Assembly (NCBI GenBank): GCA_964372445.1
Contig: CAYJQO010000001.1
Coordinates: forward strand, 1 to 53,674
Source of the DNA: an uncultured Candidatus Saccharibacteria bacterium
GTDB lineage: Bacteria; Patescibacteriota; Minisyncoccia; UBA6257; GWB1-50-10
Length of the DNA stretch: 53,674 nt
Direction of reading: 5' to 3'
Position 1 is the stretch's first letter. Each line of letters begins with the position of its first letter. Made by a program: the position numbers and the translations under genes. The notes below the pieces were generated by a model. It did no database searches and was not told where the DNA came from. It saw only the letters and a program-made list of their open reading frames with translations. This document shows, piece after piece, positions 1-1,590 of this stretch.

Positions 1-89
1 CCTGCCGACCCCGCCGTGGCGGGGGAGGAAAACTCGTATCATCCTATCTGGCTCCCCGGGTAGGATTCGAACCTACAACCCACTCCTTA

Positions 90-695
90 CACGTAATCCA
101 GCGTTTCTGCTGGCGTGGACTATATCATCATCCGCTAGATGCGGAGCGAGGCGCTTCCCCCTTTGAATAATCGGGGTACTCCCTTTCGGGATAGTCTCTA
201 CACCTGCCTACGCCAAGGCTACGGCAGGCAGGCCTTCTCTACTCGAGAATAAGCTTGCTTGCAATCCGAAGCTTTAGCGAAGGATTGGCTCGGGATTGCC
301 CTTTGCGGGTTTCCCCGAATTCACCTCGTGTTTCATCCGAAATTGCTTTCGGAAGCTGCGTAATGCCGGCCTCGATCTCACGATGGCAGTTGGCACAGAC
401 AAGAACGCATTTATCCAGCTCGGCTTTCACCTTTTCCCAGGAGCGCGTGTATCCGTGCTGGCCGATGCTGAACTCCTTGTCGTCGCGATTGCGATGATGG
501 AGATCGAGCGCGCCCTGGTACTTGCGATAGCTGCAGACCTGGCACTTTCCGCCTTTGTAGGCGATTGCCAAGGTCTTGATCTTGCGCCTTCGTTTCGCTA
601 CTGCCCTTATGAGCTCTTCTCGCCGGTCGGCATAGGTCCTCTGCTCCACCATTCTGTCAGTATATCAGGGTGCAAGGCAGAGAAGAGGCGTGTCC
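90..695 (-). mobile_element. Group I intron (subgroup IA-like architecture) carrying an HNH endonuclease ORF
   Basis: The 5' exon ends in U (696) and the intron ends in G (90). Pairings read by eye, in plus-strand coordinates: P3 322-328 with P3' 147-153 (CGAGGUG/CGCCUCG); P4 314-319 with P4' 289-294 (UUCGGG/CCCGAG); P5 hairpin 299-309; P6 282-287 with 262-267; long hairpin 203-236; P7 191-196 with P7' 118-123 (GACUAU/AUAGUC). The R-like element is UAGAGACUAU and the S-like element is GAUGAUAUAGUCC. Two extra hairpins lie between P7 and P3': 180-191 (GAAA loop) and 157-176. P8 is 131-145 and P9 is 98-113. A further hairpin UCCGAAA-GCAA-UUUCGGA lies at 336-353. I could not assign P1/IGS with confidence. 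Confidence 0.8.
239..652 (-). CDS. HNH homing-endonuclease-like protein (intron-encoded)
   Basis: 137-aa ORF with an ATG at 652. It has the Cys-pair plus HNH signature: CQVC...DLHHRNRDD...NCHREIE. It lies entirely inside the group I intron. Confidence 0.85.
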   Translation of the reverse strand: MVEQRTYADRREELIRAVAKRRRKIKTLAIAYKGGKCQVCSYRKYQGALDLHHRNRDDKEFSIGQHGYTRSWEKVKAELDKCVLVCANCHREIEAGITQLPKAISDETRGEFGETRKGQSRANPSLKLRIASKLILE

Positions 696-847
696 ACAGG
701 GAGTCGCTCTACCATTGAGCTACCGGGGAATCTAGAGATGGTAATGAACGTTCTATCTCTGAAACGTTTCGCCTGCCGTTCCCTTTCCAGGGCTGCGTAG
801 CAGAAAACTACCGGGGAACGGGAGCGCGTGTGTAGTATAGAATTGAA

Positions 848-874
848 ACGGCTCGCTGTAAAGCGGCGAGCCGT
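848..874 (-). terminator. Hairpin immediately after the stop of ORF 874..1284
   Basis: 9-bp stem ACGGCTCGC/GCGAGCCGT (848-856 / 866-874), followed on the minus strand by TTTCAATTC. The T-tract is weak. Confidence 0.4.
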
Positions 875-1284
875 TACCTCTTACCGATGATGGAGAGCAG
901 CTGTGCCGTAATACTCTCCTCAACCGCGGTCCTCGTGAGCGAAAGGTCAACTGAAACCACCTGGCTCCTCTGCTGCCGCTGGCGGCGCGCCACAGACGCA
1001 TTCGGCCCAGCCACGTCAATCTTGAAGGTCCGCAGCGCACCTTCGCCCCGCACCACCACATAGAAATCGATACCGTTGGCAACATCCGCGAAGCTTAACT
1101 TCCCCGTCTTTAAATAATCGTGGATCGTGCCCGCCCGTTTCATGCTATCAAGGATTTTGCCTACGAGCTCTTCCCGAGCTGTGCCGACCACCTGGGTGAT
1201 TACCGGTTCCCCATTAATTTTTGTCCGAATATTTTTGACCACCTCGGGCAAACTGAACCGTTCCCGCTGCTTCACGCACATCAC
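874..1284 (-). CDS. Hypothetical protein
   Basis: 136-aa ORF with a strong AGGAGG Shine-Dalgarno at 1284-1289. The true start is probably the ATG at 1281 or the GTG at 1275. I recognised no family. Confidence 0.6.
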   Translation of the reverse strand: MMCVKQRERFSLPEVVKNIRTKINGEPVITQVVGTAREELVGKILDSMKRAGTIHDYLKTGKLSFADVANGIDFYVVVRGEGALRTFKIDVAGPNASVARRQRQQRSQVVSVDLSLTRTAVEESITAQLLSIIGKR

Positions 1285-1514: not shown

Positions 1515-1590
1515 CCCCCCATAGCTCAGTTGGTAGAGCAGCTGCCTTTTAAGCAGTGGGTCCCAGGTTCGAATCCTGGTGGGGGGACCA
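1515..1590 (+). tRNA. tRNA-Lys(UUU)
   Basis: CCCCCCA TA GCTC AGTTGGTA GAGC A GCTGC CTTTTAA GCAGT GGGTC CCAGG TTCGAAT CCTGG TGGGGGG A CCA. Full cloverleaf, anticodon TTT, encoded CCA. Confidence 0.93.

Follow-up and report, generated by a model that had tools for sequence, protein, structure and literature searches.

A predicted IA-like group I intron carrying an HNH endonuclease gene in a split tRNA-Asn(GUU) gene of a Candidatus Saccharibacteria chromosome

Described tRNA introns and the place of the locus among them

A scan of ~80,000 bacterial genomes raised the number of tRNA group I intron settings from 4 to 21 (Williams, bioRxiv 2020, doi 10.1101/2020.01.27.920355). The four previous settings (Leu.3Ug, Arg.5Ug, fMet.2Ug and Ile2.5Ug) were all of subgroup IC3, Asn.4Ug is among the 17 new ones, and metagenomic genomes of unnamed phyla were found to carry 0.49 interrupted tRNA genes per genome. 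The subject of this study is a split tRNA-Asn(GUU) gene on the minus strand of contig CAYJQO010000001.1 (assembly GCA_964372445.1) of a Candidatus Saccharibacteria bacterium (Patescibacteriota); the whole stretch of 53,674 nucleotides (nt) that was analyzed is referred to below as the window. Judging from its sequence and from that of its relatives, it is very probably a functional chromosomal tRNA gene of the Candidate Phyla Radiation (CPR), interrupted between U35 and U36 by a mobile, self-splicing IA-type group I intron. The intron contains an open reading frame (ORF) for an HNH protein. The tRNA-Asn setting of group I introns is already catalogued, and the window copy is confirmatory, not a discovery.

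As in the Asn.4Ug class, tRNA-Asn is cut in the window after the fourth nucleotide of the anticodon loop, i.e. at site 35/36, with U at -1 and an omega-G, additional hairpin sequence separating P7 from P3', and a homologous core. The corresponding seed, Pam37.Asn.4Ug, is a short, ORF-less intron at the identical site (Williams seed alignment), and a local alignment of the two cores, from J2/3 to the terminal G, scored 115, compared with 46.6 +/- 7.1 (maximum 81.5) for shuffled sequences. However, the seed is 276 nt long, its guide is placed 9 nt from the splice site and it contains P2 plus P2.1, whereas the window intron has a single P2 and a ~300-nt P1 loop, which harbors the HNH gene with a predicted promoter of its own. 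The text of the Williams preprint says nothing on an ORF, a host clade or phage relatives, and no description of the P1-loop HNH ORF, its promoter, its spread in the CPR or its phage relatives was found in a literature search, in which the matches were mostly organelle or unrelated.

The classical IC3 introns, residing in tRNA-Leu(UAA), tRNA-fMet, tRNA-Ile(CAU) as well as tRNA-Arg(CCU), differ from the window intron in isotype and position. Moreover, none of the four in Williams' seed alignment has the P7.1 and P7.2 hairpins found in the window, and classical bacterial tRNA introns are mostly devoid of ORFs. A known ORF-bearing exception is the tRNA-fMet intron of Synechocystis, with an ORF of 150 codons according to the passage of PMC5733544 in which it is cited. 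In the original prediction, the known bacterial tRNA group I introns were said to reside in Leu, fMet, Ile and Arg genes and to lack ORFs; the former view is superseded by the listing of Asn.4Ug, and the latter does not agree with the Synechocystis example. The endonuclease of the Synechocystis intron is not known to be an HNH protein. The cyanobacterial 'group I introns' of 22-49 nt (PMC5733544) were rejected as not comparable to the window intron.

An IA-type core combined with the ORF of an HNH homing endonuclease is also known from phage group IA2 introns, such as that of I-PfoP3I in the gene for the DNA polymerase of cyanophage Pf-WMP3, and there too the ORF is apparently expressed independently of the host gene (PMC3428280). 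These introns, however, interrupt protein-coding phage genes, whereas the window intron is found in a cellular tRNA gene and has its ORF in the P1 loop. I-HmuI of SPO1, a nicking endonuclease, is a further example of the phage group IA2 HNH type. Another related case is SegB of phage T4, a free-standing homing endonuclease of a phage tRNA cluster, whose preferred site lies within the tRNA-Asn gene (of phage T2L) and which constitutes a precedent for tRNA-Asn genes as homing targets (PMC2330249). SegB resembles the free-standing phage relatives of the window HNH protein that are located beside tRNA-Asn genes, but it is a GIY-YIG enzyme, it is not intron-encoded and its cleavage site is close to the tRNA gene's 3' end (PMC2330249). 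Host clade and interruption of a structural RNA gene are shared with the CPR rRNA introns encoding homing endonucleases; these, as described in the relevant passages of PMC8172020 and of PMC11809585 (citing Tsurumaki et al. 2024), occupy 16S/23S genes and encode mostly LAGLIDADG proteins, whereas the window has a tRNA gene and an HNH protein. In complete CPR genomes, tRNAs for all amino acids were accounted for only after group I intron-containing tRNAs had been recognised (Lui et al., PMC8172020), and the paper on tRNAscan-SE 2.0 states that the program is not designed for detecting tRNA genes with group I introns.

The split tRNA-Asn gene and its intron

The 5' exon (729..696 on the minus strand, 34 nt) reads TCCCCGGTAGCTCAATGGTAGAGCGACTCCCTGT and the 3' exon (89..49, minus strand, 41 nt), in which CCA is encoded, reads TAAGGAGTGGGTTGTAGGTTCGAATCCTACCCGGGGAGCCA. 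The two halves had been predicted at 49-89 and 696-729, 606 nt apart, and these coordinates proved exact. When joined, they form a 75-mer, called by ARAGORN as tRNA-Asn(gtt) with a canonical cloverleaf and the expected anticodon loop CUGUUAA. The intron (695..90) begins with GGACAC and finishes with ACGUG, and the splice site falls between the anticodon nucleotides U35 and U36.

The locus was compared with its relatives in a set of 77 split loci including the window, of which 72 are non-redundant (L001-L085 and the window). The exon end CUGU/UAA and the omega-G, and hence the exon-final U and the intron-final G that had been noticed in the window, are invariant in all 77. In silico splicing at 35/36 gave tRNA-Asn(gtt) for each of the 72 non-redundant loci. 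The 59 distinct mature sequences show only Watson-Crick or G-U combinations (100%) at the acceptor-stem pairs 1-72 to 7-66 and at the anticodon-stem pairs 28-42 to 31-39; compensatory changes are numerous, and every one of these pairs is made of one base per exon, ~560 nt apart in DNA. U1-A72 (72/72) and G73 (71/71 relatives) are invariant and agree with bacterial tRNA-Asn identity. To judge from these compensatory changes, the conservation of the exon-spanning stems is due to selection for a working tRNA, which implies removal of the intron. Plain ARAGORN and the Rfam tRNA model yielded only tRNA-Lys(UUU) (1515..1590) in the whole 53.7-kb window, so the split tRNA-Asn gene is invisible to ordinary annotation.

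Table 1. Features of the split tRNA-Asn locus (window positions) and of the related loci discussed in the text
Feature	Position	Strand	Basis
tRNA-Asn 3' exon, U36 to A76, discriminator G73, CCA at 51..49	49..89	-	Sequence; ARAGORN
606-nt group I intron, beginning with G at 695 and ending with omega-G at 90	90..695	-	Rfam RF00028; covariation; fold
P3' 153..147; P8 145..131; J8/7 + P7' (S element) 123..118; P9 113..98	98..153	-	Alignment
P7.1 (190..181) and P7.2 (176..158), extra hairpins typical of subgroup IA	158..190	-	98.1% and 88.4% paired
P7 5' strand, GACUAU; belongs to the R element; partner strand 123..118	191..196	-	96.6% paired
P6 and long two-hairpin extension carrying the ORF stop codon (241..239)	202..289	-	Rfam alignment; minimum free energy fold
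P3 5' strand 328..322; P4 318..313; P5 hairpin 309..299; P4' 295..290	290..328	-	Alignment
P2 hairpin UCCGAAA-GCAA-UUUCGGA	336..353	-	88.6% paired; both-side changes in all 7 pairs
P1 3' strand (internal guide) CGCAG	356..360	-	Invariant GCAGC in relatives
Intron ORF, 137 aa, HNH endonuclease, CxxC...HH...CxNCH motifs, in P1 loop	239..652	-	PHROG; conserved residues
Extended -10 promoter-like box TGaTATACT, ends 6 nt before ATG (652)	659..667	-	Conserved in relatives
tRNA-Asn 5' exon, tRNA positions 1-35, ends in U35 (second anticodon base)	696..729	-	Sequence; ARAGORN on spliced product
Sigma-70-like promoter candidate TTTACA-17-TATACT, ~105 nt upstream of tRNA	834..862	-	Consensus scan, 10/12 matches; inference
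Loci with a type B core	L023, L033, L040, L043, L045, L055, L057, L060, L061, L074, L084		
Examples of phage tRNA arrays	L091 2071-2870; L097 2108-2879; L099 2307-2850		
Examples of long/normal tRNA pairs in phage arrays	L091 2780-2870; L099 2764-2850; L102 2084-2170; L119 2877-2966; L148 (Ile)		

The presence of a group I intron at 90-695 was examined with the Rfam model Intron_gpI (RF00028, gathering score 50 bits). The match, at 392..97 on the minus strand, covers the full model length (50.1 bits, E 7.7e-10); the closest relative scored 67.6 bits and other relatives 61.4 and 86 bits. Both core elements quoted in the original prediction, i.e. the R element UAGAGACUAU and the S element GAUGAUAUAGUCC, are present, together with two hairpins between P7 and P3'. 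The pairings were evaluated in a MAFFT alignment of 65 loci, which begins at the guide and extends as far as the 3' splice site, and in which pairs were counted for the structure written from the window sequence; as controls, the partners were slid by 1-3 columns and 500 shuffles were made. For the 49 core pairs (P2-P9, P7.1 and P7.2 included), 87.9% of 3088 cells hold standard pairs, versus 33-52% after sliding, changes on both sides occur in 32 of the 49 pairs, and 0 of 500 shuffles matched the observed pairing or covariation score.

Considering individual helices, 87.5% of cells are paired in P3, 98-100% in P4 and 97.9% in P5. In P6, which contains a 69-nt insertion in the Rfam alignment, the closing pairs are 93.8% paired and the sub-hairpins appear in the minimum free energy (MFE) fold. 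The P7 G-C pair is invariant (64/64), and compensatory changes were found in all 7 pairs of P7.1 and P7.2. An energy-only MFE fold of 366..90 independently yields P2-P9 (-100.9 kcal/mol, z = -3.0). Thus, in silico, the element displays a U at the end of the 5' exon, a U.G wobble in P1, an omega-G, a P3-P9 core and a P3/P7 pseudoknot. In the Michel-Westhof classification, P7.1/P7.2 between P7 and P3' are the hallmark of subgroup IA; their presence places the core in this subgroup and not in IC3 of the classical bacterial tRNA introns, and the setting, Asn.4, is not an IC3 one either. By this predicted structure, 695..90 is a complete group I intron, IA-like, and the P3, P4, P6, P7, P8 and P9 pairings as well as the two extra hairpins proposed from the window were borne out.

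The predicted P1 helix involves the internal guide: U35 has its wobble partner in G359, the exon bases G34, U33 and C32 are matched by C358, A357 and G356, respectively, and C360 pairs with the intron G+1. The sequence GCAGC is invariant in 72/72 introns; its distance from the 5' splice site is 298-348 nt, and P2 follows it after two nucleotides. Since the guide is situated so far into the intron, just before P2, the HNH ORF lies in the P1 loop. The combinations of intron +1 with its guide partner are G:C in 61, A:U in 9 and A:A in 7 of the 77 loci, and no others were observed. The guide is encoded by the conserved Thr-Gln codons of the ORF motif GITQLP, and the last ~40 codons of the ORF run through P1', P2, P3, P4 and P5 and into P6. 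The ORF-less seed has its guide near the 5' splice site; such a placement was also considered for the present introns and rejected: G[CU]AG occurs within intron nt 5-70 in 30/72 introns, which is about the chance level, whereas the distal GCAGC is invariant.

The intron-encoded HNH protein, its relatives and their distribution

The product of the intron ORF matched PHROG 2255 (E 5.9e-29) and PHROG 3106 (E 4e-23), both annotated as HNH endonuclease families, and was not recognised by Pfam or NCBIfam (for Pfam HNH only E 0.25). In 33 aligned relatives, the catalytic and zinc-binding residues C37, C40, H52, H53, C86, C89 and H90 are invariant and N88 is nearly so. The median ratio of nonsynonymous to synonymous substitution rates (dN/dS) is 0.089 over the first 98 codons, with dS near saturation, and by this measure the ORF is under purifying selection. 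In the AlphaFold2 model, the predicted local distance difference test scores are 67-88 (averages of 10-residue blocks, residues 1-100); the model is confident for residues ~10-95, while residues 101-127 score <50 and are disordered, which agrees with a C-terminal tail resulting simply from continued reading through P1' and on into P6. The best matches of a PDB fold search were all HNH nucleases (Cap5, Gme HNH, T4 endonuclease VII and Cas9 HNH), although weak (best E 0.037), and the only match of a PDB sequence search was marginal (E 0.014), involving the HNH domain of a maturase from a group II intron.

The 22 nt preceding the ATG contain at least 5 of the 6 positions of TATAAT in 58 of 65 introns (47 of them perfect), compared with 5.2% of control windows. 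The box ends 6-9 nt before the ATG in 52 of these introns, and the TG of an extended -10 element is present in 32. From this conservation we infer that the HNH gene is transcribed independently, and its predicted mRNA would be leaderless or nearly so.

Genes encoding class II ribonucleotide reductase, FtsZ, FtsA, HisRS, ClpB and polysaccharide-synthesis proteins are present in the window, which is a cellular chromosome. A search of the protein collection (E <= 0.001) retrieved 1455 relatives of the HNH protein, and the few with a source name are from Patescibacteria (CPR) metagenome-assembled genomes. Among 185,579 species-representative genomes, 269 loci encode an HNH relative; the best 80 of these belong almost exclusively to Parcubacteria/Paceibacteria-type lineages, and nearly every locus not interrupted by a contig end holds the same split tRNA-Asn. 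With 72 non-redundant loci, almost all of them in Patescibacteria genomes, sharing intron and site, and 269 HNH loci and hundreds of Patescibacteria genomes involved, the earlier impression that an ORF-bearing tRNA-Asn intron would be unusual did not hold.

The distribution of the intron nevertheless looks patchy. Uninterrupted tRNA-Asn genes matching the spliced-sequence pattern were detected in at least 120 metagenome contigs, and for 3 intron-bearing loci the identical mature tRNA sequence is also present uninterrupted in such contigs. A syntenic intron-less counterpart of L012, L025 or L028 was not found among the 120 metagenome contigs listed, and therefore the presence/absence polymorphism is read from the identical tRNA sequences alone.

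The cores following the conserved ORF, guide and P2 are not all alike. The window and the majority of the CPR loci have a type A core, with P7.1 and P7.2. In 11 loci, the same ORF, guide and P2 at the same insertion site are followed by a type B core, which lacks P7.1/P7.2, is unalignable to type A and resembles Williams' Tyr.4Ug and Thr.2Ug seeds; three of these were scanned with the Rfam group I model and scored 41.7-61.4 bits. A third core was found in the viral contig L115 (86 bits). This arrangement suggests recombination or core swapping between P2 and P3.

Relatives of the HNH protein were also found in IMG/VR viral contigs (loci L086-L165). They show 47-71% identity over residues ~28-100, and their genes are free-standing members of phage tRNA arrays. 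Of the 61 distinct phage HNH relatives, 43 have an intact GUU-anticodon tRNA within 400 nt, often on both sides (tRNA-Asn, HNH, tRNA-Asn), whereas tRNA-Asn genes make up only 62 of the 549 tRNAs in those phage loci. A free-standing HNH gene beside tRNA-Asn genes is the usual signature of a homing endonuclease targeting that gene. Within the viral set, the split, intron-bearing form occurs only in L115.

Several other features of the phage loci were recorded. In many arrays an anticodon is represented twice, by a tRNA of normal length (72-77 nt) and by a long one (85-91 nt) whose variable arm is class II-like, and several phage GUU-anticodon tRNAs differ strongly in the acceptor stem, G1-C72 types standing beside U1-A72 types. 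The best-covering match in an isolated phage is the 242-aa annotated HNH endonuclease g371 of Yersinia phage fHe-Yen9-04 (L166, NC_042116.1, 270862-271657). ARAGORN without introns called no tRNA beside this match; the 3' end of g371 overlaps an annotated 91-nt 'tRNA-Ser'.

Proposed splicing and homing, and competing explanations

The following course of events is proposed. The precursor would probably be transcribed from the promoter candidate ~105 nt upstream, and C32-U33-G34-U35 would pair with CGCAG, the guide located at 360..356 and thus ~335 nt inside the intron, forming P1 with the canonical U.G wobble. External guanosine would attack after U35. The terminal G (90) would then enter the G-binding site in P7 and U35 would attack after it, restoring the anticodon GUU and freeing the intron. 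The HNH gene in the P1 loop, presumably transcribed from its own extended -10 promoter into a leaderless or nearly leaderless mRNA, most likely encodes an enzyme that cleaves or nicks tRNA-Asn genes lacking the intron, close to the anticodon region, and repair would copy the intron in (homing). Splicing, promoter use and the target and activity of the endonuclease are here deduced from sequence comparisons. Homing is the most likely mode of spread, as suggested by the patchy distribution, the identical tRNAs with and without the intron and the phage relatives beside tRNA-Asn genes.

Several observations weigh against this reading. The Rfam score of the window barely reaches the gathering threshold (50.1 vs 50). 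P8 and P9 are paired in 65-67% of MAFFT cells only, because MAFFT aligns these variable hairpins poorly. P1 is short (5 bp), and in 7 loci it contains an A:A mismatch beside the wobble pair. P10, weak or absent, was not established, as it would comprise 1-3 bp at most and is unconserved; on the 5' side of the guide (UUA, UAA, UCA, CUU...), no conserved complementarity to the 3' exon UAA is seen. The borderline Rfam score would also suit a real intron that has lost splicing, leaving a dead tRNA gene while Asn is decoded by another copy elsewhere, and uninterrupted tRNA-Asn genes of very similar sequence are indeed common in metagenomes. Such a loss is nevertheless very improbable, as all core helices and both splice-site nucleotides are intact, and compensatory pairing across the exons in 59 mature sequences, with G73 and U1-A72 invariant, is not expected of a pseudogene. 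Moreover, a second tRNA-Asn gene was found neither in the 53.7-kb window nor in the flanks of related genome loci, and CPR tRNA sets become complete only with the group I intron-containing tRNAs (PMC8172020). A shift of the splice register by 2 nt upstream (...CCCU/...ACG/UGUAAGG) would likewise put a U directly 5' of the intron and let the intron end in G, and would produce tRNA-Thr(UGU); it is this form that ARAGORN reports when introns are allowed ('tRNA-Thr(tgt) i(33,606)'), with Thr or His called in about half of the relatives. However, in the 77 loci the dinucleotide preceding the terminal G is variable (AC, GC, AU, GU), which would create anticodons such as UGU and CGU in Asn-type bodies, the guide CGCAG pairs with C32-U35 and has its wobble at U35, and splicing at 35/36 yields Asn(gtt) in each of the 72 loci. 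U1-A72 and G73 also speak for asparagine, and we give the Thr register practically no credence. With CUGU/UAA being invariant, the Thr(tgt/cgt) and His(gtg) labels assigned by ARAGORN to the unspliced genes were rejected as register artefacts.

A different question is whether the intron moves. It might instead be an old, vertically inherited and immobile CPR intron, whose HNH protein is kept for a role other than homing (as a maturase or a general nuclease). Its spread over many Patescibacteria lineages, mostly labelled Parcubacteria/Paceibacteria, is in line with such a history, as are the lack of an empty syntenic site among the 120 metagenome contigs listed and the strong purifying selection on the ORF, which is not required by pure selfish cycling. 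Yet only 269 HNH loci were found in 185,579 genomes, in a patchy-looking pattern, and the HNH proteins are 60-83% identical across hosts that differ widely in tRNA exons and G+C. In addition, at one and the same site the ORF/guide/P2 module is followed by at least two cores that cannot be aligned with each other, and the phage relatives are free-standing beside tRNA-Asn genes. Immobility is, on this evidence, unlikely, and a functional tRNA gene with a mobile, self-splicing intron is preferred.

A broader proposal can be put forward tentatively, as a possibility that we rate somewhat below even. In this scenario, a single lineage of HNH homing endonucleases would be specialised on tRNA genes with the GUU anticodon, alternating between a free-standing form beside tRNA-Asn genes in the tRNA arrays of large phages and a form lodged in the P1 loop of CPR tRNA-Asn introns; the ORF/guide/P2 module would have been joined to at least 2-3 unrelated cores at the identical site, and a leaderless mRNA would be produced from the intron-internal extended -10 promoter. 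If this is true, these loci would offer an extensive natural data set on how mobile introns arise through invasion of an intron by an endonuclease gene, and in genomes with a single tRNA-Asn gene all Asn decoding would be ribozyme-dependent.

That every Asn codon depends on splicing, as raised in the original prediction, is plausible, and a single ribozyme may gate the decoding of all AAC and AAU codons in a reduced genome. For genome annotation, it matters that ARAGORN with introns allowed labels the split gene as Thr or His: CPR genomes can thereby seem to lack tRNA-Asn, and a missed tRNA-Asn can mislead inferences of completeness or of the genetic code. The intron element would also connect CPR chromosomes with phage tRNA arrays through a shared endonuclease lineage, and its natural variants, which number in the hundreds and in part combine the same ORF with different cores, lend themselves well to studies on the assembly of mobile group I introns.

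Some minor features of the tRNA-Asn loci complete this description. The 3' CCA is encoded in 18 of the 72 split tRNA-Asn genes, the one in the window included, and the remaining genes must depend on CCA addition. In the window, the candidate promoter at 834..862 (minus strand) comes after a hairpin that ends an upstream ORF of 136 aa (874..1284, minus strand; no Pfam hit). Finally, 6 of 72 loci, namely the window, L010, L013, L016, L024 and L071, have an exact 10-14-nt copy of the tRNA's own 5' end at a distance of 51-324 nt upstream. The window copy, TTCCCCGGTAG (808..818 versus 720..730, both on the minus strand), is located 88 nt upstream, within the inverted repeat CCGTTCCC...GGGAACGG, and such copies may be scars of repair or gene conversion.

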